The notes beneath the pieces were generated by a model that did not search any database, was not told the origin of the DNA, and was given only the letters and a program-made list of their open reading frames with translations. The translations under genes were made by a program, and so were the position numbers. A stretch of 64,000 nucleotides of DNA from Candidatus Saccharimonadota bacterium (lineage in GTDB: Bacteria; Patescibacteriota; Saccharimonadia; Saccharimonadales; JAXHNE01), in NCBI GenBank assembly GCA_034520885.1, contig JAXHNE010000009.1, forward strand, positions 2,431 through 66,430, written 5' to 3'. Positions 2,476 through 58,038 of the stretch are shown one piece after another; the first letter of the stretch is position 1; each line of letters opens with the position of its first letter.

Positions 2476-3012
2476 TTATTTTACTGTAACCTCCTTGGTA
2501 TCGGAGATGCCTGAGGCAGTTTCTGATGAATATTCTACAGTTGCTGCCCACTTGCCGGGTGTAAGTTTTGACAGAGGAATTTTTATAAAACCACAGGAAA
2601 CATCGGAAACGTTACGCGCTGCCGTACTTGTTGCTTTAACTTCTCTGGATCCACTCTTTAGAGTTAGTTCACAAGTGCCGCCGTCCTCAAATATGCCTGG
2701 GACGCGTGCCGCAAGCTCAAAGTTTGCATCAGATTGGCCCCAAGAAGTAACCTGTGGCTTTACTTGCTTATTGTCGCTTGGTGTAGTTTCGGTTTCTTCG
2801 CTTGGTTTTGGTTGATCAGCTAATTTTTCCTTGTGTTCTTCAGTCTCTTGTAGGTCGGTTTTAGTTGGCGGGTCCAAATCAATACTCTCATCATTAGCCG
2901 TTGTACGATTTTGGTTGGTGTAATGCCAATAAGCAAGGCCGCCGACAAGTACAAGCGGCAGTAAAATGGTAAGTAAACCTATTTTTAGATAATTTTTTTT
3001 TGTTTTCTTCAT
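2476..3012 (-). CDS. small membrane-anchored/secreted hypothetical protein
   Basis: I trimmed the 239-aa track ORF to the internal ATG at 3012 (MKKTKKNYLKIGLLTILLPLVLVGGLAYW = N-terminal anchor). The longer form would overlap the divergent gene starting at 3112. An acidic linker is followed by a beta-rich C-terminus. Confidence 0.6.
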   Translation of the reverse strand: MKKTKKNYLKIGLLTILLPLVLVGGLAYWHYTNQNRTTANDESIDLDPPTKTDLQETEEHKEKLADQPKPSEETETTPSDNKQVKPQVTSWGQSDANFELAARVPGIFEDGGTCELTLKSGSREVKATSTAARNVSDVSCGFIKIPLSKLTPGKWAATVEYSSETASGISDTKEVTVK

Positions 3013-3111: not shown

Positions 3112-4299
3112 ATGCTCAGAGCTGTAAATATTTTCGGCAGTAGAGTCTTTGCCTACCTGAAAAAGACATTTACGGCCAAAAAAATCCGACAACACGCACC
3201 ATTGTTTATTGTACTGGTGGCAGTGTTTACCTCATTTATTTATGGCTGGTACTTTGACGGCTCAAAACCAATGTCAGGCAAAGGTTGGGCCGACCAAACA
3301 TCTTATTATACAGCCGCCGCCAGGTTTTCAGATTTTGAGCTGCCAAGAGCTGGTGAACTACACTATGCGATCGGCTATCCTTTGCTTGGCACAGTAGGTG
3401 GTATTTTTGACAGTGACGACCCGTTCATGGTTGTTAGTCTGGTATTGTTGCTGGCGAGTGTTACGCTTTGTTTTTTGGCAGTCACAAAACTTTTTGGCAA
3501 GAATTGGGCAGTTCTATTCATACTTTTTCTATTTTACTGGGATTTAGTAGGCAGGTCTTTTAGTTTTGCTTCCGAATTATTCGTAGTGCCCTGGAATATC
3601 CAGGTTCTCTTTCTGGCCATGGCTTTTTACTTATGGCTCTTTGCAACTAAAGCGCACCAAAAACCCTCTTGGCGCCTTGTGTTGATAGCTTGCGTACTTT
3701 CAGGATTTGCCATTTTAACGCGGGAAGAAGCGGCACTTTTTGTGTTGCCGGCTATAGCCCTTTTTATACTTATAACAAAAGCCGGAATCAAAAAATTACT
3801 AATTGCAGGCATTATCACTGTCTCGTTTTTCATCCCGCAATTTTTGGTTAAGCTCAATGCTTACGGCTCGATAACGAATTCCGGCCGCAGCGACAGCTAC
3901 TCTGACATAAGATCGCACTACTTACAGCCAGACTTGTTCGAGCGAAACCTGAAAGAAGTTGTTATAAATAGCAGCTACACTACGGGCGCCGAAGCGAGTA
4001 GGCCAGCATTACTTGAAGCTGCCCCGTGGTTGTGGCTTAGCCCGATTGGCTTGGGGCTTATACTCGTACTTAAAAAATATCCGGTAGCTCTAAAAACTTA
4101 CGTCTTGGTAAGCTTGGCACTTGTGGTATTTTACTTAAGCGGTGCCAATATGTCAGCTCAAAAGCTGCGCTTCCATTGCCTGCGTTATATTGCGCCTGGC
4201 ATGATAGTGCTGAACCTAGGGACTCTTGTCGCTGCCAAAGAAACATTTACTTTTACTGCAGAAAAAGTAAAGTCTAAAAACGGTAAATTTCATGCCTAA
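3112..4299 (+). CDS. polytopic membrane protein, GT-C-like glycosyltransferase candidate (PMT/ArnT-like)
   Basis: 395 aa with ~10 predicted hydrophobic helices. It lies in a glycan locus and its stop overlaps the start of the next polytopic protein (ATGCCTAA). Confidence 0.4.
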   Translation: MLRAVNIFGSRVFAYLKKTFTAKKIRQHAPLFIVLVAVFTSFIYGWYFDGSKPMSGKGWADQTSYYTAAARFSDFELPRAGELHYAIGYPLLGTVGGIFDSDDPFMVVSLVLLLASVTLCFLAVTKLFGKNWAVLFILFLFYWDLVGRSFSFASELFVVPWNIQVLFLAMAFYLWLFATKAHQKPSWRLVLIACVLSGFAILTREEAALFVLPAIALFILITKAGIKKLLIAGIITVSFFIPQFLVKLNAYGSITNSGRSDSYSDIRSHYLQPDLFERNLKEVVINSSYTTGAEASRPALLEAAPWLWLSPIGLGLILVLKKYPVALKTYVLVSLALVVFYLSGANMSAQKLRFHCLRYIAPGMIVLNLGTLVAAKETFTFTAEKVKSKNGKFHA

Positions 4300-6352
4300 A
4301 ATCAGTAAAAAAACCAGATTACTTGAGCGCATACTGCAGAATCTTCCAGTTATCGTGCCAGTTTTTGTAGCGGTCTTCGGTGCTGCTATGATGCTCTTAC
4401 TTGTATTAGGTAAATTTTACACATGGCCTGTTATTGTAATTTCCGGTACTTTAGCGGCGTACGTAACCTTTCGAACACACACACGGCTCGACAATAAATT
4501 CTTGCCGGGAGGTAACAGGGAAAAATTACTGGGCAGCCTTGTTGTTATTGTTTTTGTATTTTTATGGATGGGCTTTAACGCGGGGCTAACGGCACAGCAT
4601 CTATTTACCAACAGAGACCCAGGTGTATATGCGGTTACTGGTAGTTGGCTCGTAGAGGACAATGACTTGGATATAGAGAAACAGGAAGTATTTGGTAGTA
4701 CGGAGGGGGTCAAGTACAACAGCGGGGGCTTTATGCCTAACCCAGACAATCCGAGTGAGATACACGCGCAAGGTGTACATCTGTTGCCATCATTTGCAGG
4801 CCTGGGTGGCCGGTTGTTTGGTTTGCAGACCATGTTTCGCATAAACGTGCTCTTTGGGGGAATCGCGCTTTTAGCCATTTATGCCTTTGCAAGAACAATA
4901 ATGAAACCCAGATGGGCTGCATTCGCCCCAGTGATAATGGGCGCAAGCTTGCCGATGATTTACTTCTCCAGGGATATGTACACCGAACCGTTGTTGGCTG
5001 GATTTACTTTTACAATGCTTGCAATAATATTTATGGCCGTTAAAACAAGCAGTCGCGCTCTCTGGTTTGTTGGTGGCTTCCTCGGCGGTGCGGGCGCTCT
5101 TGTGAGGATAGATGGTTATCTAACTATAGCTATGGCGCTTGCTTTTGTTAGTATTTATGCAGCAGTAAATGCCCGCAGAAAACATGCAATTATAAGTTCA
5201 TTGCTTTTCATACTCGGCTTGAGCCTTCCGGCAATTGTAGGTTGGGCTGATTTGTCACAATTTTCCAGGTCATATTTCATAAGCGAATGGCCAAATATTA
5301 AGCTGGAAATCGCCTTAATCGCTGCGATTATAGTAGTCGGTACTGCACTATTTGTACTTGCTAGAAAAACCGCAGTTATGAATAAATTGGACAAGGTAAC
5401 TGCAGGTTGGCGCGGCCCGGCCGTGTTTATTCTTGTATTATTAGTCTTTGGCTTTCTGGCGAGCCGTTCGCTTTGGCAAGTGAGTTATGCCGAGAAAACC
5501 GTATTAACAGAGAGCGGACAGAGCCAAATAGTAAGGCAGAGAGATTATTACGAACGTTCATTTATATGGGTTGCTTGGTATATTGGTCCGGTTATAGCAT
5601 CATTCGGTGCCCTCGGATTAGCTTTCTTTTCTGGGCTAATGGTAAAACGCAAAGATTTATATCTGTTAGCACCGCTACTTGTGATAGTGAGCACTTCCAT
5701 TTTCTATATATATAATCCAAATATTCACCCAGACCACATATGGGCAGCTCGGCGGTTCCTGCCAGTTATTTTCCCGGGCTTTGTCGTCTTTGGCCTCGGC
5801 TTTTTGGCTTATATTTATAATAAAACAATAAAAAAGTTCAGCAGACAAAAGGGATTTATTACTGTTGTAACGGTGTCTTTGGTATTACTGGCTATTGGAG
5901 GCCCCCTTTATGCGGGAAAGAGACTTATTTTTGTGCGAGAAGCAACGTGGTATTCGGCTGTTCAGGAGACATGTAATGTTACCCACGACAACAATGCAGT
6001 TTTATGGGTAGGGTCTGCCAGGACACAGTTGATAGAGGCAAGCAAGTCAATATGCGATATCCCGACAGCTGGCTACGGGACGCTCTTTAGCAACAATCAA
6101 ATGCCATCAAAATCCATTCTAGCTGAAGCATCACTTAGAGCCAGAGAAAAAGGCTATACCCCGTTAATTGGCTTATTCGGCAGAGAAAAAAGTTTACTGG
6201 AGCCTAATATGCAGGTCACAAAAATACATGAATTTTCTTATGAACGAATAGAAAAAACTGCTGATTTCCCTCGCCATAAGCAGGTTTTCACCAACAGTAT
6301 TTTATTGGGCGAGATACTAAAAGACGGAAGTATCGTTGGTTTGTCTCGTTGA
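4292..6352 (+). CDS. polytopic membrane protein with C-terminal soluble domain, GT-C-like glycosyltransferase candidate
   Basis: 686 aa. Many TM helices occupy the first ~520 aa and a soluble ~150-aa tail follows. This architecture is typical of ArnT/PMT-type lipid-linked sugar transferases. Overlaps the upstream gene by 8 nt. Confidence 0.45.
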   Translation: MPKISKKTRLLERILQNLPVIVPVFVAVFGAAMMLLLVLGKFYTWPVIVISGTLAAYVTFRTHTRLDNKFLPGGNREKLLGSLVVIVFVFLWMGFNAGLTAQHLFTNRDPGVYAVTGSWLVEDNDLDIEKQEVFGSTEGVKYNSGGFMPNPDNPSEIHAQGVHLLPSFAGLGGRLFGLQTMFRINVLFGGIALLAIYAFARTIMKPRWAAFAPVIMGASLPMIYFSRDMYTEPLLAGFTFTMLAIIFMAVKTSSRALWFVGGFLGGAGALVRIDGYLTIAMALAFVSIYAAVNARRKHAIISSLLFILGLSLPAIVGWADLSQFSRSYFISEWPNIKLEIALIAAIIVVGTALFVLARKTAVMNKLDKVTAGWRGPAVFILVLLVFGFLASRSLWQVSYAEKTVLTESGQSQIVRQRDYYERSFIWVAWYIGPVIASFGALGLAFFSGLMVKRKDLYLLAPLLVIVSTSIFYIYNPNIHPDHIWAARRFLPVIFPGFVVFGLGFLAYIYNKTIKKFSRQKGFITVVTVSLVLLAIGGPLYAGKRLIFVREATWYSAVQETCNVTHDNNAVLWVGSARTQLIEASKSICDIPTAGYGTLFSNNQMPSKSILAEASLRAREKGYTPLIGLFGREKSLLEPNMQVTKIHEFSYERIEKTADFPRHKQVFTNSILLGEILKDGSIVGLSR

Positions 6353-24701: not shown

Positions 24702-25499
24702 ATGATAGAAGCACTCATTTTAGGAATCGTACAAGGGTTGACCGAGTTCATTCCGGTATCCAGTTCCGGGCATTTGGTGTTATTTCATGAGCTGTTCGGG
24801 TTCCAAGAAGGCGGACTGGCGTTTGACGTAGCGCTGCATATGGGGACGCTCCTGGCGGTGGTTTTGTATTTTCGAAAGGACTTGATGGAGTTAGCCCGTG
24901 GGTTTTTTGCCGGCAACCAAAAACAGCGGAACATGGTGTGGCTGCTGGCCGTGGCGACCATACCGGCGGTTATCGTGGGATTGTCCTTACAATCCGTCGT
25001 GGAATCCGTGTTGCGTTCGCCGTGGGTGGTGGCCGCGATGTTAGTACTGTTCGGACTGTTCATGATAGTCGCGGAAATCAAAGCCGAATCAATTAAACAC
25101 AAACGTAAAACCGATAAGCTGACCGGCCGCCAAGCGGTGAGTATCGGGCTGTTGCAAGCCTGCGCGCTTATTCCGGGAGTTTCGCGCTCCGGGGCGACGA
25201 TTAGCGGCGGGCTGCTTTTGGGATTGGACCGAGTGGCGGCCACGCGGTTTTCGTTTTTGTTGGCCATTCCGATTATTTTCGGGGCGGGCGCCAAAGTGCT
25301 ATTGGAGGAGGCAGCCCGAAACGACGTGGCGGCTCACCTCACTATGTTTGCCAGCGGAACCACGGCGGCGTTTATAAGCGGCATGATCGCCATTCGTTTT
25401 TTACTGGCTTTCGTTGCCCGCTACAGTATTCGCAGTTTCGCGTATTATCGGTTCGTCGCGGCAGGGCTCATCATCCTGTTACTGGTGCTCCAGCGTTGA
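24702..25499 (+). CDS. uppP: undecaprenyl-diphosphate phosphatase
   Basis: 265 aa. ..GLTEFIPVSSSGHL.. and ..PGVSRSGATI.. BacA/UppP motifs. Confidence 0.9.
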   Translation: MIEALILGIVQGLTEFIPVSSSGHLVLFHELFGFQEGGLAFDVALHMGTLLAVVLYFRKDLMELARGFFAGNQKQRNMVWLLAVATIPAVIVGLSLQSVVESVLRSPWVVAAMLVLFGLFMIVAEIKAESIKHKRKTDKLTGRQAVSIGLLQACALIPGVSRSGATISGGLLLGLDRVAATRFSFLLAIPIIFGAGAKVLLEEAARNDVAAHLTMFASGTTAAFISGMIAIRFLLAFVARYSIRSFAYYRFVAAGLIILLLVLQR

Positions 25500-25627
25500 C
25501 GTAGTCAAAACTTTTACTCATGGCGGGGCAAGTACACCATCCCTGGTGATAAAAACTGCAAAAAATACTACATATAGCGCTGCACTAGTGCGTTATACTA
25601 CTACATACGGTAGCTTAATAATTAAAT

Positions 25628-25754
25628 GCTGGAAGTAGGGTGTAATTCCCTCACTGTGCCGCAACGGTTCCAGGAACATGGATTGGCAAGCCCGCTCCCG
25701 TGCAAAGCACGAGACGTACTCAAGTCCATGTTTCTGGTGAAAGTCCGATACAGC
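25628..25754 (+). promoter_or_regulatory. cobalamin-riboswitch-like aptamer (candidate)
   Basis: GGAAGTAGGGTGTAATTCCCTCACTGTGCCGCAACGGT resembles the conserved Cbl core (GGGAA..GGTG..AA.TCC...C.G..CCGCAAC.GT). GGTGAAAGTCCGATACAGC resembles the B12 box (AGYCMGGAGACCKGCC). The GCTG(25628)/CAGC(25751) closing helix and nested helices CATGGA/TCCATG and CGTGC-AAA-GCACG are present. Downstream, CCTCC (about 25840) can pair with either GAGCAGGAG or the SD GGAGG of the next gene. Confidence 0.55.
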
Positions 25755-25858
25755 AAAAAAAGTATACCCCGTAGAGATACTATCTTCTATCGGGGTCTCC
25801 CGAGCAGGAGCATTGGTAACGTATCGTCGCCTCCTTGCTCGTAGAGGACGGAGGAAAC

Positions 25859-27022
25859 GTGCGAGCCACACACGAAATACGAACCTACGACCCGGAAAAA
25901 CGGCGCGAAGAAGACTTTGTGACTTTGGCGGCCGAAATGTTGGAAGGCCAGATGCGTACGCCGACGGAGTACGAGTATGATCCCGGGACTGACGAGCTGA
26001 TCGCCGAGGACGGCTCACGGATCGGCAAGATATTCGACGATTCACTGGACGCCGCCAAGGAAATGGTAAGTGATGCGCCACAGCTTTCGTTCGAACTACG
26101 TCGCCGTAAAATTGAACGCGAAGAGTATGACGATATGCTGGCCATGATGCGCGGTGATCTCCCCAACACCATGGTCGTGGTGTCCGATTTTCCGCCGGAG
26201 TTGATGGACTATCCCGAAGACGTCGGTGGCTACAACGTGACACGCAAGCAAACCATGTTGCGGGTGATTACCAAGCAGGACAATAAGCTACACATGTATA
26301 CCCAGTCGTTAGACAGAAGTGATCGCGACGGCCTTGAAAGTATGTATCAGGCCTTGGGATTCGCGCCTGAGGAAGGCGAGTTACTGGGACAAAGAATGCA
26401 TGTCGACCTAGACGCAGAGTTCCAAGAAAAGCTCGTCGATGAGCTAACTAACGCTTATGATGCGACCCTCAGGGATAAACACGGCGGAAATGAATTCAAG
26501 GCCGGCCGGCGAGTCCGCCAGTGGGAAAATATCATAAATACCTATGATTTCGTGCGCGCCCAAACCGATATTCTACACTTTGCAATGCATAACGAAGTTA
26601 CGGCCGACTCGCGCCAGTATTACGACATAGTTGCCACGATTGCGCAGCGCTACGCCCAGGCCAAAGAAGGACCCCACAAGGCACCGCGAAATCTTTCGCT
26701 TACTGATCCGGCAACCCTCGTCGTCCAGTATTCCAGGTTAGAACAAGAGCTTAGCGAATTTGGACAGCAAGCTCGCGCAGAAGGTAAAAGCTTTAGTGCG
26801 TGTGGCGTAACCTTAGAAGTCAACGATTCATTAAGTGGGGAGTCGCAGCTCGATAACAACGGCTACGGCAACAAAACCAGCAAAGAAGAGAAATACAATT
26901 TTGATGCTTACCGGTACTGTGTATCCTGCCAGGCACCGCCGAAAGGTAAAGAAAAGAAGAAGATGTGCGGACCTTGTGGGTTGTGCCGGAGCTGTGATAA
27001 AAAAGCGGGCGGAAAAGGATAG
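25859..27022 (+). CDS. hypothetical acidic protein with C-terminal Cys cluster (CxxC-x12-CxxCxxCxxC)
   Basis: I placed the start at GTG 25859, preceded by GGAGGAAAC; the track ORF starts at 25835. No family recognised. The C-terminus is ..YRYCVSCQAPPKGKEKKKMCGPCGLCRSCDKKAGGKG. Confidence 0.7.
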   Translation: MRATHEIRTYDPEKRREEDFVTLAAEMLEGQMRTPTEYEYDPGTDELIAEDGSRIGKIFDDSLDAAKEMVSDAPQLSFELRRRKIEREEYDDMLAMMRGDLPNTMVVVSDFPPELMDYPEDVGGYNVTRKQTMLRVITKQDNKLHMYTQSLDRSDRDGLESMYQALGFAPEEGELLGQRMHVDLDAEFQEKLVDELTNAYDATLRDKHGGNEFKAGRRVRQWENIINTYDFVRAQTDILHFAMHNEVTADSRQYYDIVATIAQRYAQAKEGPHKAPRNLSLTDPATLVVQYSRLEQELSEFGQQARAEGKSFSACGVTLEVNDSLSGESQLDNNGYGNKTSKEEKYNFDAYRYCVSCQAPPKGKEKKKMCGPCGLCRSCDKKAGGKG

Positions 27023-27031
27023 AATGTACGT

Positions 27032-27661
27032 ATGAGCCGATCGACAAAGCAAAAAATTGGGATTTTCTCGGGGACTTTCGATCCGATTCATGACGGGCAT
27101 ATTCAATTTGCGCTGGATGCCATTGCCGATCAGGGCCTGGACAAAGTCTATTTTATGGTGGAGCGCCGCCCCCGGCGAAAACAAGGAGTCCGCGCCTTCG
27201 AACACCGCCAAACCATGGTACAGCTGGCCATAGAAGACGAACCCAAACTCGGGTCGATCATTACCGATCAACAGCAGTTTACCGCGCACCAAACCCTTCC
27301 CATTTTACGAAAACGTTTCGGCGATAGCGTCCGGCTGGTACTACTGGCCGGCGACGACATGCTGTCGCATATGAACGAGTGGCCGCACGTGAAAGAACTG
27401 ATTCAAAGCGTGGAGTTTATTTTTGGCGTGCGCGGGCAGCGTTCGCTCGCCCGGGAACGCATAGACACCATTCAAAATACGCGCAACATGACGTTTCGAT
27501 ATACGTTACTGAGTAGCGGTTTACACAACGTGAGTTCATCGCGCATTCGCTCGCAGATAAAAAATCATGAAAAACCGTCTTACGTCGATAAAGGCGTGGC
27601 GTCGTATATTCGGGAGCAGGGGCTTTACTCGTCTTCCTCGGCCGATTCGGCAAAAAACTGA
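27032..27661 (+). CDS. nadD: nicotinate-nucleotide adenylyltransferase
   Basis: 209 aa. GIFSGTFDPIHDGHI (HxGH nucleotidyltransferase motif) and ..SSSRIR... Confidence 0.85.
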   Translation: MSRSTKQKIGIFSGTFDPIHDGHIQFALDAIADQGLDKVYFMVERRPRRKQGVRAFEHRQTMVQLAIEDEPKLGSIITDQQQFTAHQTLPILRKRFGDSVRLVLLAGDDMLSHMNEWPHVKELIQSVEFIFGVRGQRSLARERIDTIQNTRNMTFRYTLLSSGLHNVSSSRIRSQIKNHEKPSYVDKGVASYIREQGLYSSSSADSAKN

Positions 27662-35552: not shown

Positions 35553-35615
35553 GGGTTATTAAATATCTTTGCTTATTACTTTTTGCTACACTTAAGCATA
35601 AGTATAGAAGGTTTT

Positions 35616-37859
35616 ATGCCAAAGCAAAAGAATACACCCCCACCAGAGGAAGACAAGCGTAAAGAACTAGAAGAAAAGATCGACGAAATGCTCGATCCGC
35701 GCCGCCCTGACCGACCCGAGATCAAGGTCGTGGGTGACGACGCCAAAGAAAAAGCGACCGATGATAAACTCCCGACCAAAATCGAAATAAAAAATGACGG
35801 TAAAACCAAGAAAGCGGGTAAAAAAAGTAAAAAGAACCAAAAAGAAGACGGCGCGAAGAGCGAGGAGCCGAGCGGGGCACCGGAGGTTTCTTCCAAAAAG
35901 ACCGCGGTAACGGAGCGTCGGGAGGACGAACCCGAAAGCGACGAAACTCCCGATCCGGCCGAGGATGGCGATGATAGCCAAGAAACCGGGCAATCGGAAG
36001 AGGAGACGGAAAGCCCGGAAGAGGAAGCTGACGAGGAAGCGTCAACGGAGGACACCCCCGACGAAAAAGAGCCCGAAGAAAATCCGGACGAAGAACCCGA
36101 AACTCCCGCCACTGATTCGGAGGCTACCGAGTCCAAAGACGATAAGAACGATAAGCCGGCCGCCAATCCGGCGCTTGACGAAGCGGTGGACGACATCGCC
36201 AAAGAGGAAAGCGATAAGCTGCTGGAAAGCACCGATACGTCGGAGTCCAGCGAGTCCAAACCCGCCAAAACCCCTTTCCGTGCCCGCCTAAAAGCTTTTT
36301 TTAAGGCTTGGTGGCATAACAAATATGCTCGGTACGGGACGATTTGCGTACTGTTATTATTGCTGGCGGCCGGGGCGATCATTCCGACTTCACGCTATTT
36401 CGTGCTTAACACGCTGGGGGTGCGTAGCAGCGCATCGGTCAAGGTGTTCGACCAAAGCACCCTGCAGCCATTAAAAAACGTGACGGTGGAAATAAACGGC
36501 GTACGGGCCAAAACCGACATTGACGGCGTGGCCAACGTGGGACACATCAAACTCGGCAAAACTGATTTGTTAATTACGAAACGGGCTTTCAGTAGCATTG
36601 AACGGCCTCTTACCGTGGGGTGGGGAAGCAATCCGTTGCCGGACGAACGGCTCACCCCGGTGGGCGCGCAGTACGAGTTTTTGGTAACCGATTACGTATC
36701 TGGCGAGCCCGTGCAAGGCGTAGAGGCGGTAAGCGGCGAAGAAGCCAGTGCGCTTTCCAATGAAAACGGGGAAATAAAACTTACCCTGGATATGCCGGAC
36801 GAACAATTCGAAGTGCAAATTATCGGCGAAGAATTCCGGAACGAAACACTCACCATGAACGCCGAAGACGAAGACGTTCGAAAGCTAGAGCTGGTGCCCG
36901 ACAAAAAACACGCCTTCGTATCCCGCCGCGACGGCACATACGATATATATTCGGCCTACGCCAATGGCCAGGATGAACAATTACTTTTGAAAGGTAGCGG
37001 CGAAGAGCGCGAAGACATAACGCTCGTACCGCATCCGTCCCGTGACGTTGCCGCGTTGGTATCGACGCGCAGTGGGAAGCGAAACGATGACGGGTATCAA
37101 CTCAGTACACTGACCATTCTAAACGTTAAGGACTCCGGTGATCCGAAAACCGTGGTTGATTCCGAACGAATTCAAATTATCGGCTGGCAAAACGAACGCT
37201 TGGTCTTCGTGCAAATTCGATCCGGCACCAGTGCGGCGAACCCCAAGAGGCACCAACTAAAAACCTACAATCTTGAACAAGAAGTGGTCGCCGAGCTGGC
37301 CAGTGCGAATTATTTTAATGACGTCATGCTGGCCAATGACGTGCTGTTGTTCGCGCCTTCCAGTGCTTACGCCAAAGAACCGGCCGCCTTATACCGGATT
37401 AATCCCGATGGTTCCGATCAACGGATCGTGCACCCCAACGAGGTTTGGAGCATGTTCCGCAACACCTACGAAAATGTCATTTACACCACCGGAAGCCGCG
37501 ACTGGTTCGATCTGGACTTGAACAGTCTTTCTACCGGCCAACGCGAAGGGGAGCCGAACCAGTACGACTCACGAGTATACGTGGATAGTCCCGATGGCAC
37601 GAAAAGTTTGCGCGTGGAAAACCGCGACGGGAAAGGAAACTTACTGGTGTATAACAAGGAGAGTGGCGAAGAAAATTCCGTTGCCGAAATGGGCGGCCTT
37701 CGGCAGCCAGCGATGTGGTTGAATAATTCCACGGTGGTCTTTCGGGTAAAAACCGACGCGGAAACCGCGGATTATGTGGCGAGTTTGCGCGGGGGTGAGG
37801 CGAAGAAGTTGGTTGATGTGACTGACGCGGCCGGGTTAGAGCGCTGGTACTACTACTAG
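35616..37859 (+). CDS. membrane-anchored surface protein: disordered acidic/Lys-rich N-terminus, TM helix, CarboxypepD_reg-like and TolB/beta-propeller-like region
   Basis: I set the start at ATG 35616 (MPKQKNTPPPEE..). Low-complexity E/D/K/P region to about aa 215, TM helix (ICVLLLLLAAGAIIP), then repeated beta-rich segments (..DGTYDIYSAYANG.., ..SPDGTKSLRVENRDGKGNLLVY..). Confidence 0.7.
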   Translation: MPKQKNTPPPEEDKRKELEEKIDEMLDPRRPDRPEIKVVGDDAKEKATDDKLPTKIEIKNDGKTKKAGKKSKKNQKEDGAKSEEPSGAPEVSSKKTAVTERREDEPESDETPDPAEDGDDSQETGQSEEETESPEEEADEEASTEDTPDEKEPEENPDEEPETPATDSEATESKDDKNDKPAANPALDEAVDDIAKEESDKLLESTDTSESSESKPAKTPFRARLKAFFKAWWHNKYARYGTICVLLLLLAAGAIIPTSRYFVLNTLGVRSSASVKVFDQSTLQPLKNVTVEINGVRAKTDIDGVANVGHIKLGKTDLLITKRAFSSIERPLTVGWGSNPLPDERLTPVGAQYEFLVTDYVSGEPVQGVEAVSGEEASALSNENGEIKLTLDMPDEQFEVQIIGEEFRNETLTMNAEDEDVRKLELVPDKKHAFVSRRDGTYDIYSAYANGQDEQLLLKGSGEEREDITLVPHPSRDVAALVSTRSGKRNDDGYQLSTLTILNVKDSGDPKTVVDSERIQIIGWQNERLVFVQIRSGTSAANPKRHQLKTYNLEQEVVAELASANYFNDVMLANDVLLFAPSSAYAKEPAALYRINPDGSDQRIVHPNEVWSMFRNTYENVIYTTGSRDWFDLDLNSLSTGQREGEPNQYDSRVYVDSPDGTKSLRVENRDGKGNLLVYNKESGEENSVAEMGGLRQPAMWLNNSTVVFRVKTDAETADYVASLRGGEAKKLVDVTDAAGLERWYYY

Positions 37860-57962: not shown

Positions 57963-58038
57963 TGGTGGGGGTGGTTGGAATCGAACCAACTACCAAGACG
58001 TTATGAGCGTCCTGCTCTAACCGATGAGCTACACCCCC
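57963..58038 (-). tRNA. tRNA-Met (anticodon CAT; could alternatively be tRNA-Ile2 after lysidine modification)
   Basis: The reverse complement folds as a cloverleaf: GGGGGTG-TA-GCTC-ATCGGTTA-GAGC-A-GGACG-CTCATAA-CGTCT-TGGTA-GTTGG-TTCGATT-CCAAC-CACCCCC-A-CCA (76 nt, CCA encoded). Confidence 0.9.

Follow-up and report, generated by a model that had tools for sequence, protein, structure and literature searches.

A candidate cobalamin riboswitch between uppP and a gene for a 387-amino-acid protein

In a 64,000-nucleotide (nt) stretch of a Candidatus Saccharimonadota contig (JAXHNE010000009.1), hereafter the window, the uppP gene (BacA; 24702–25499) is the upstream neighbor of a leader that precedes a gene for a 387-amino-acid (aa) protein, P0001. 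A hypothetical protein in a Candidatus Saccharibacteria metagenome-assembled genome (MAG) has the same sequence as this product (100% identity). Positions 25613–25861 of the + strand can be read as a cobalamin-riboswitch aptamer, consisting of a P3-P6 junction (P, paired region), a T-loop in L4 (L, loop), an L5 of GCC and a B12 box, followed by an expression platform that sequesters the Shine-Dalgarno (SD) sequence. From comparison with orthologous leaders, we conclude that approximately 25606–25861 (+) is very probably the 5′ leader of a Saccharibacteria mRNA carrying a class-II-type cobalamin (corrinoid) riboswitch.

The original prediction, made from the letters of this DNA, had placed a cobalamin-riboswitch-like leader in a 335-nt gap after uppP. 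That length holds only if TTG 25835 is the start codon; the annotated 387-aa product starts at the GUG at 25859, and the SD GGAGG lies 4 nt 5′ of this GUG. All of the sequence elements that it listed are present where it put them, with the pairs checked base by base. What it missed were the P13-equivalent CUCC-CGAGCA-GGAG hairpin, the lineage-variable nature of two long hairpins and the identity of the regulated gene. The features of the locus are as follows (J, joining segment; MFE, minimum free energy).

25560–25599, + strand: conserved locus-specific DNA block, AAAAAATACTACATATAGCG ... TATACT, with a -10-like TAnACT at 25594–25599
25613–25627, + strand: 5′ leader and J1-3 region, GCUUAAUAAUUAAAU, homologous in alignments to the conserved UUAACAA...A-rich segment of the orthologs
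25628–25631, + strand: 5′ strand of P3, GCUG, pairing with CAGC 25751–25754 (U25627-A25755 can extend the helix); 4/4 P3 pairs changed on both sides in 55 leaders
25632–25636, + strand: J3/4, GAAGU, matching the conserved GGAA junction; high posterior probability against Rfam AdoCbl, and conserved in the ortholog alignments
25637–25651, + strand: P4 stem AGGG/CCCU with the 7-nt L4 UGUAAUU (T-loop motif GGUGnAAnUCC); 4/5 P4 pairs covary
25655–25663, + strand: P5, UGU/GCA, with an invariant L5 GCC; GCCG 25658–25661 is a candidate kissing strand
25665–25667, + strand: 5′ strand of the base of P6, CGG, pairing with CCG 25745–25747; the middle G-C pair becomes U-A in 17/54 leaders
25670–25737, + strand: lineage-variable hairpin of 68 nt in the P6 loop (P6 extension); MFE -32.2 kcal/mol, z -5.36
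25741–25754, + strand: B12 box, made up of the P6 3′ strand CCG 25745–25747, J6/3 AUA and the P3 3′ strand CAGC; conserved in all orthologs
25767–25795, + strand: optional hairpin CCCCGTAGAGATA-C-TATCTTCTATCGGGG (CCCCG...CGGGG) between the aptamer and P13; MFE -14.6 kcal/mol, z -3.38
25797–25810, + strand: P13-equivalent hairpin, CUCC (25797–25800), loop CGAGCA (25801–25806) and GGAG (25807–25810); 25802–25810 is also the anti-sequestor strand
25814–25868, + strand: full helix that, in the MFE fold, sequesters the SD together with the start codon; the GUG is covered by its outer pairs, and no U-tract follows
25830–25841, + strand: switching strand Y, CCUCCUUGCUCG, which can form the anti-sequestor with 25802–25810, leaving the SD free, or the sequestor with GGAGG of the SD
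25850–25861, + strand: SD GGAGG (25850–25854) and GUG start codon (25859–25861); this start agrees with the 387-aa P0001
25859–27022, + strand: regulated gene, encoding the 387-aa soluble protein with a Cys-rich (zinc-ribbon-like) C-terminal tail; conserved in Saccharibacteria
27032–27661, + strand: NadD-like cytidylyltransferase gene, 10 nt after the regulated gene (PF01467; TIGR00482 at 111.7 bits against a cut-off of 112.45)

The NadD-like gene is possibly co-transcribed with the regulated gene. In folding, the whole leader region is more stable than its shuffles (z -3.75).

The element is conserved and covaries in orthologous leaders

Using an alignment of 29 of the 441 homologs of the 387-aa protein (approximately 42–52% identity), we fetched 56 loci from GTDB species representatives, all of them Saccharibacteria or unclassified MAGs (loci are cited below by number, such as L030). 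The GGUGnAAnUCC...CCGCAAC core lies 150–250 nt 5′ of the gene in nearly all of the ortholog loci. Leaders in 25 of 49 loci reach the Rfam gathering score of RF01689 or RF00174 (24 of 40 loci, plus 1 of 9 further loci mostly with long insertions), with scores of 36.7–46.2 bits against a threshold of 36.5 for RF01689 and 33–41.9 bits against 31.5 for RF00174.

A covariance model, R1, was built from 21 orthologs with a minimal P6, leaving the window out, and covers P3, P4, P5, P6 and the small hairpin 3′ of the aptamer. On both strands of the 64 kb, R1 finds the window locus only, at 25607–25713 (37.3 bits, E 2.6e-6), together with a second match at 25746–25814 (19.4 bits) that corresponds to the P13 part; two insertions in the window split the match. 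The same model matches exactly once in every GTDB locus that retains sufficient upstream sequence (54/54, 36–109 bits) and once in each of four further loci reached by way of other members of the family (4/4), two of them with distant relatives of 494–503 aa.

In the alignment of 55 leaders, 97.6% of cells hold standard pairs, compared with 30–55% when the partners are slid, and 13 of the 19 pairs have changed on both sides (162 cells); none of 500 shuffles reaches the observed values. This covariation supports P3, P4, P5, P6 and the post-aptamer hairpin. For example, GCUG/CAGC in P3 is replaced by ACCG/CGGU, the U-A pair in P5 by A-U (in six leaders) or G-C (in one), CGG/CCG in P6 by CUG/CAG, and CUCC/GGAG in the small hairpin by CUCU/AGAG, CUUC/GAAG or UUCC/GGAA. 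The reading of this leader as a cobalamin riboswitch thus finds support in the Rfam scores of the orthologs, in the ortholog-only model and in covariation, and the paired regions on which it was based are conserved. We also note that one ortholog (L036, approximately 2990–3001) seems to offer no start codon (ATG, GTG or TTG) in frame at the conserved N terminus, which suggests a CTG start or an assembly error.

The aptamer resembles class II cobalamin riboswitches

The 38-nt core at 25631–25668 is GGAAGTAGGGTGTAATTCCCTCACTGTGCCGCAACGGT (as RNA, GGAAGUAGGGUGUAAUUCCCUCACUGUGCCGCAACGGU). A degenerate 34-nt core pattern with up to three mismatches has one match in the 64-kb window and none in 100 shuffles. 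The B12 box at 25741–25754, AAGTCCGATACAGC (as RNA, AAGUCCGAUACAGC), is the sole exact match in the window to the B12-box pattern AAGYCNGANACNGC and lies in the place expected; the pattern alone is not significant, having four matches in the window at up to one mismatch where two are expected. The assignment of this box, and the pairing of its CAGC (25751–25754) with GCTG at 25628–25631, had been proposed originally and agrees with the orthologs. Every proposed pair and conserved junction nucleotide is intact in the window, which has the P3-P4-P5-P6 junction, the J3/4 GGAA, the L4 GGUGnAAnUCC and a C-rich L5.

In the 95 nt 5′ of P3, RNAalifold predicted no conserved RNA structure across 33 leaders, which fits the lack of a P2 module. 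A P1 helix was considered and excluded from the covariance model, as neither duplex folding nor inspection of model-based alignments supports it. In our description, the aptamer is therefore a canonical P3-P4-P5-P6 four-way junction that is without a P2 module and whose P1 is marginal at best.

The P3-P6 junction and an L5-L13 kissing loop are common to all cobalamin riboswitches; class I (Cbl-I) adds a P2 module and a P7-P11 extension, whereas class II (Cbl-II) is without P2 and has a P6 with a loop or a simple stem-loop (PMC7367189). Both features of Cbl-II are found in the window, namely no P2 loop-stem-loop and a P6 that is a simple stem-loop with no P7-P11, and the combination that defines Cbl-I, a P2 module with a conserved P7-P11 extension contacting the ligand pocket, is not. 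Judged by sequence and predicted pairing, the window family fits Cbl-II. Since P6 is a bare loop in some members and a long hairpin in others, neither IIa/IIb nor the preferred corrinoid form can be assigned.

The likeness to Cbl-II (RF01689, AdoCbl-II/AdoCbl-variant; env8HyCbl, PDB 4FRN/4FRG) includes the P3-P6 junction, the T-loop L4, a short P5, the C-rich L5, a B12 box that closes P6 and P3, and the absence of a P2 module, and many orthologs of the window gene pass the RF01689 gathering score. The window differs from Cbl-II in its 68-nt P6 hairpin, sub-threshold score and marginal P1, and from the RF01689 model in having an L5 of GCC (3 nt) instead of aCCU and a J6/3 of AUA instead of AGcG. 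With Cbl-I (RF00174 Cobalamin/RF01482 AdoCbl; T. tengcongensis 4GMA, E. coli btuB), the window shares the conserved core and the B12 box; some orthologs exceed the RF00174 threshold, the best Rfam match of the window is RF01482, and E. coli btuB likewise acts through sequestration of the ribosome-binding site. Unlike Cbl-I, the window has no P2 loop-stem-loop, and its P6 extension is an unconserved simple hairpin, not a pocket-folding P7-P11. A further comparison is with B. subtilis yvrC, an atypical riboswitch indicating that peripheral elements can mix between classes, which uses CCG in L5 for its kissing loop (PMC7367189). As in the window (25767–25795), yvrC has an extra hairpin between the aptamer and P13, but it differs in having a P2 arm and a P13-P14 platform and in acting on transcription (PMC7367189).

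Two lineage-variable hairpins interrupt the window copy

P6 in minimal members of the family is CGG-UUAAAGY-CCG; in the window it is CGG-UU-[68-nt hairpin]-UGAAAGU-CCG. The UU and UGAAAGU that flank the insertion are the counterpart of UUAAAGU, the 7-nt L6 in minimal orthologs. The internal helices CATGGA/TCCATG and CGTGC-AAA-GCACG of the original prediction are indeed present, as parts of a single long, unbranched hairpin (25670–25737) that forms the P6 extension and probably points outward from the core. Between core and B12 box lie 75 nt in the window and 5 to 99 nt across the orthologs, whose P6 segments are, by eye, without evident sequence similarity.

The optional hairpin before P13 also has counterparts at the same position in two orthologs, L045 and L050. 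The B12 box and P13 are separated by 56 nt in the window, by 55 and 50 nt in L045 and L050, respectively, and by 19–28 nt elsewhere.

An expression platform with competing pairings

The order common to all leaders is the aptamer, a 4-bp hairpin with a CGAGCA loop, a variable spacer and a hairpin whose 3′ arm contains the SD. The stem of the first hairpin, which we take as the P13 equivalent, is 98.7–99% paired across leaders, with 3/4 pairs changed on both sides and a nearly invariant loop. Its loop and 3′ arm, strand X (CGAGCAGGAG), are complementary to the 5′ arm of the SD hairpin: GAGCAGGAG (25802–25810) and CTCCTTGCTC (25831–25840; as RNA, CUCCUUGCUC) can form nine standard pairs with one bulge. 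In the alternative pairing, the core of the sequestor is CCUCC 25830–25834 with the SD GGAGG 25850–25854. The hairpin-plus-sequestor (OFF) fold is the MFE fold of 25796–25868 (-28.0 kcal/mol); in the anti-sequestor state (-21.1 kcal/mol), the SD is unpaired and the GUG start is at most weakly paired.

Platform pairing was quantified in a trimmed alignment of 39 sequences. P13 plus sequestor is 85.9% paired, compared with 46–57% in slid controls, and 9/12 pairs have changed on both sides; the anti-sequestor is 82.6% paired, compared with 40–48%. Compensated X-Y variants occur in L020 (CUAGCAAGAG/CUCUUGCUAG), L034 (CGAGCUAGGAG/CCUCUAGCUCG), L055 (CGAGCUAAGAG/CUUCUUAGCUC), L037 and L030 (CGCGC/GUGCCG). 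The proposal that CCTCC sequesters the SD GGAGG thus finds support in alternative pairings that are conserved and partly covarying.

A candidate kissing loop joins L5 GCCG (25658–25661) to L13 CG(A)GC (25801–25805) by four pairs with the A bulged. L030 alters only the putative bulge position, a change that is compensated in the anti-sequestor partner. A GG[CU] in the variable spacer (for example, in AAGGC loops) was considered as a general kissing partner and set aside, since by eye it occurs in only a subset of leaders. Separately, eight leaders (L022, L028, L029, L033, L042, L045, L047 and L049) have an extra spacer hairpin with the conserved loop GCAACUCGUAAGGC; the GGC or GGU in this loop is complementary to L5 GCC and could be an alternative or additional kissing partner.

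These pairings suggest how the leader may work. Three strands of the platform would compete for pairing: X (CGAGCAGGAG), Y (CCUCCUUGCUCG) and Z, which comprises the SD GGAGG with its surroundings. On binding of a corrinoid, L5 (GCCG) would kiss L13 (CG(A)GC) and lock P13, leaving Y free to pair with Z, such that the SD and GUG would be buried and translation of the 387-aa gene turned off. In the absence of ligand, X and Y would pair co-transcriptionally, the SD would be open and the gene would be on. Since this topology follows the logic of Priestia (Bacillus) megaterium metE, the model predicts B12-dependent repression of the 387-aa gene. What we infer here is the ligand, the L5-L13 contact, the direction in which the switch acts and the kinetic nature of its control.

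In P. megaterium metE, the kissing loop, whose bases are CCG × CGG, stabilizes P13 and lets a terminator form, as found by compensatory mutagenesis; bulged kissing loops are documented, and a bulged L5-L13 kissing loop is known for env8 (PMC10327014). The likeness to the window lies in a repressing action, which is predicted in the case of the window, and in the structured spacer between P13 and the regulatory hairpin. As in metE, the 3′ side of P13 in the window is complementary to the 5′ side of the downstream hairpin, and P13 and this hairpin are compatible. The two differ in that the output of metE is an intrinsic terminator and its kissing loop is unbulged, whereas the window has no U-tract and buries its SD and start codon; P13 is just 4 bp with a 6-nt loop in the window, and the aptamer class also differs.

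Could regulation in the window nonetheless be transcriptional, through intrinsic or Rho-dependent termination? In most orthologs, the SD hairpin is CCCUyGCUCG...CGAGGG followed by UAUUUUUAUG (UAUUUUU) directly before the start codon, a GC-rich hairpin and U-tract that look like an intrinsic terminator and appear to hide the SD as well. However, in the window the stem of the SD hairpin is followed by GGAGGAAACGUG (AAACGUG), with no U-tract, and a terminator scan is empty on the + strand. Moreover, both the SD and the GUG lie inside the helix, and L030 has the same U-less, SD-sequestering design (the SDs GGAGG in the window and GGGAG in L030 are paired to CCUCC and CUCCU, respectively). Although a contribution from Rho is conceivable, we consider a transcriptional mechanism in the window unlikely and favor translational control. 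One ortholog, L044, has a terminator-like hairpin 18 nt from the AUG (approximately 2960–2990) and no obvious SD, which suggests purely transcriptional control at that locus.

A conserved block upstream of the aptamer

A block at 25560–25599, which ends approximately 28 nt before P3, is also conserved. Its pattern is an A-rich tract, TACTAyATnTAGCG, approximately 12 nt and then (T)GCTAnACTACTA. Equivalents are found in L001–L058 (for example, L021 2761–2800), and the pattern has a single occurrence in the window and in each of 23 exactly matching loci, always just 5′ of the aptamer. A TG precedes the TAnACT, giving an extended -10, in most orthologs but not in the window. It was considered whether the block is an RNA part of the P1 or P2 kind; RNAalifold finds no pairs, and we treat it as a DNA-level signal. 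A scan with the sigma-70 consensus did not call it. The block is probably a promoter, perhaps with an unusual -35 region, and/or an operator, and as a promoter it would place the transcription start near 25606. It may be mentioned here that a LexA_DNA_bind gene lies immediately 5′ in L058 and one gene further 5′ in L057.

The regulated protein and its genomic contexts

The 387-aa protein has no Pfam or NCBIfam match, and Pfam also finds no domain in 18 sampled relatives (10 distant and 8 remote). An exhaustive profile search returned 455 clusters among 1.84 billion representatives. An AlphaFold2 model (pLDDT 87.1, pTM 0.78) has no fold match in a Foldseek search of the PDB, and a profile search of PDB sequences also gave none.

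The NadD-like gene follows the regulated gene in the window and in L030, L057, L058 and L112, a conserved position that raises the question of whether nicotinic acid mononucleotide/NAD metabolism is co-regulated with B12. Two distant relatives, L059 and L060, share instead the opposite-strand Na+/H+ exchanger gene of the window. In L030 and L112, the order is riboswitch, DUF4430, DUF6580, a member of the family or superfamily and the NadD-like gene; the genes from DUF4430 to the family member form one operon, the DUF4430-DUF6580 stretch spans 388–1325 in L030 and 8297–9219 in L112, and the DUF4430 protein is small and membrane anchored. A DUF4430-type gene is also first after the riboswitch in L071 and L133 (the gene order past DUF4430 was read in L030 and L112). 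In the transcobalamin family of B12 binders, DUF4430 forms the C-terminal domain (PMC4350170). The DUF6580 membrane protein may be an unrecognized component of B12 uptake; we did not call it CbrT, as it has no sequence match to any PDB chain and DUF6580 has no mention in the literature.

When metagenomes were scanned for the aptamer core linked to CGAGCAGGAG, more than 120 matches were found, and 80 of the loci were analyzed. In 22 of these, a hidden Markov model places the 387-aa family directly downstream. Most of the other metagenome loci with a complete open reading frame (ORF) encode Pfam-less proteins of 460–575 aa, mostly with a Cys-rich, zinc-ribbon-like tail (L072, L077, L084, L087, L100, L102, L105, L119, L121, L123, L127 and L135 are loci of this kind). 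In profile-profile comparisons, group G1 is related to the 387-aa family at 97% probability over 220 columns and G2 at 91.5% over 335 columns, and G3 is related to G2 at 96%; a fourth, acidic group, G4, is unrelated. In L104 and L117, the riboswitch is followed instead by an unrelated, very acidic protein of 536–546 aa, and some loci of the scan (L071, L112 and L133) have DUF4430 as their first gene. The riboswitch therefore fronts a broad, Pfam-less protein superfamily, sometimes with likely B12-binding and membrane components. Members of this target superfamily are approximately 390 to 575 aa long and have a zinc-ribbon-like C terminus, with neither a Pfam domain nor a fold match in the PDB.

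Elsewhere in the window, the ORFs at 4292–6352 (+) and 35583–37859 (+), of 686 and 758 aa, are without a Pfam match at E ≤1e-5.

Discussion

Several observations weigh against our proposal that this leader is a cobalamin riboswitch that represses the 387-aa gene. The window copy falls below every Rfam gathering score, contrary to the match that the original prediction had hoped for: its best score, in a permissive search of 421 nt, is 24.9 bits for RF01482 (AdoCbl) against a threshold of 50 (E 0.016). With the model built from orthologs, the window is the second lowest of the 55 leaders. P1 comprises just 3–5 A-U pairs in an inconsistent register, the duplexes of the flanks ranging from +2.2 to -2.7 kcal/mol. 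The full-length MFE fold is already the OFF fold, by the margin given above, so that a ligand-free ON state would need co-transcriptional setting or kinetic trapping. Covariation of the anti-sequestor is modest (four pairs, six cells), and the two kissing-loop strands are both invariant, which makes covariation uninformative, with one of the four pairs broken in L020. No link between the regulated protein and B12 is known, and the ten largest ORFs of the window include no recognizable B12-dependent enzyme. As the 64-kb window is part of a genome, this last absence says little.

The low scores may have a simple origin. In the RF01482 alignment of the window, the core is placed with high posterior probability, P1 is lost as a deletion and the B12 box is put in the wrong place. 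Taken alone, this sub-threshold match is suggestive. We rejected the placement of the B12 box by Infernal at AAGCCCGCUC in favor of 25741–25754, which agrees with the orthologs, the model being unable to span the P6 insertion. At gathering thresholds, Rfam misses every scanned leader in which core and B12 box are at least 49 nt apart (for example, L002, L006, L025, L047 and L048), and since all of these fail too, the sub-threshold score of the window is probably due to its long P6 insertion. Its low score with the ortholog-built model likewise follows from the match being split by insertions.

If the fold is that of a riboswitch, could it sense a ligand other than the usual B12 coenzymes, such as the incomplete corrinoid cobinamide, or activate rather than repress? 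Corrinoid riboswitches are known to sense several corrinoids, and there is an example of activation (PMC10327014; see also PMC9600662). It is also true that the L5 of the window is GCC rather than the common CCC, that P1 is weak and that the IIa/IIb distinction cannot be drawn. However, P13 and the sequestor are compatible with one another and both are excluded by X-Y pairing, which is a repressing topology, whereas activating riboswitches are those whose P13 and terminator have sequence in common (PMC10327014). The ligand-contacting core (J3/4, B12 box and J6/3) agrees with the Rfam consensus, and the DUF4430 context points to cobalamin-like ligands. We regard another ligand or an activating switch as distinctly improbable.

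That the window copy is a decaying relic, its insertions having disabled sensing or coupling so that the gene is constitutively expressed or repressed, is in our view very unlikely. Such a relic would explain the rank of the window among the 55 leaders, the failure to reach Rfam thresholds and an MFE fold of the platform that is OFF, and its L6, which in solved class II structures docks into L4 (PMC7367189), is interrupted. Yet the window copy has kept all of its core pairs and conserved junction nucleotides, and its P13, switching strand and SD pairing are likewise intact. P6 insertions of 45–99 nt occur in six other species and a hairpin before P13 in two others, indicating that the family tolerates both; as in other insertion-bearing orthologs, the insertion is flanked by the L6 residues UU...UGAAAGU, and the low score is an artifact of aligning a split match. 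Lastly, a chance resemblance or an unrelated structured RNA, for which one could cite the missing Rfam gathering match and the weak matches to unrelated families in the permissive search, is effectively refuted by the absence of the core from all 100 shuffles, the E value of the ortholog-only model, the presence of the element in 58/58 loci with strong covariation and the insignificance of the other Rfam matches (E ≥0.2, with scores far under their thresholds).

A cobalamin riboswitch with translational output is thus the reading that we retain. The RNA itself belongs to a known kind of riboswitch, which will not surprise specialists; the value of the finding lies in the annotation blind spot, the suggested sensing of corrinoids and the uncharacterized target superfamily. 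As to the first, the window provides a concrete false negative of annotation by Rfam thresholds, its only gathering-level match being a tRNA gene (57966–58038, − strand; 68.5 bits), and a model derived from orthologs recovers leaders with a long P6. As every scanned leader of the family with a P6 segment of at least 49 nt was missed, B12 riboswitches in genomes of the candidate phyla radiation are probably under-counted.

What might the superfamily do? In 58/58 loci, the riboswitch precedes one protein family without a known domain or a detectable structural relative, and in metagenomes it also precedes remote relatives of this family. These associations point to an uncharacterized superfamily as the main B12-regulated target in the Saccharibacteria lineage. 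Our literature search on cobalamin riboswitches or B12 use in Saccharibacteria found nothing. We suggest, tentatively and as a possibility that falls somewhat short of an even chance, that there is an unrecognized Saccharibacteria B12 regulon, whose nearly universal target would serve, as a new component, in acquiring or processing corrinoids alongside the DUF4430 and DUF6580 proteins encoded with it in one operon in some species. Alternatively, the target could replace a B12-dependent function without needing B12. The leader suggests that Saccharibacteria, with their reduced genomes, sense corrinoids, which would imply B12 use and scavenging and bear on their dependence on hosts or neighbors, and the 387-aa family is a sharply defined candidate for a missing step of B12 uptake or handling.

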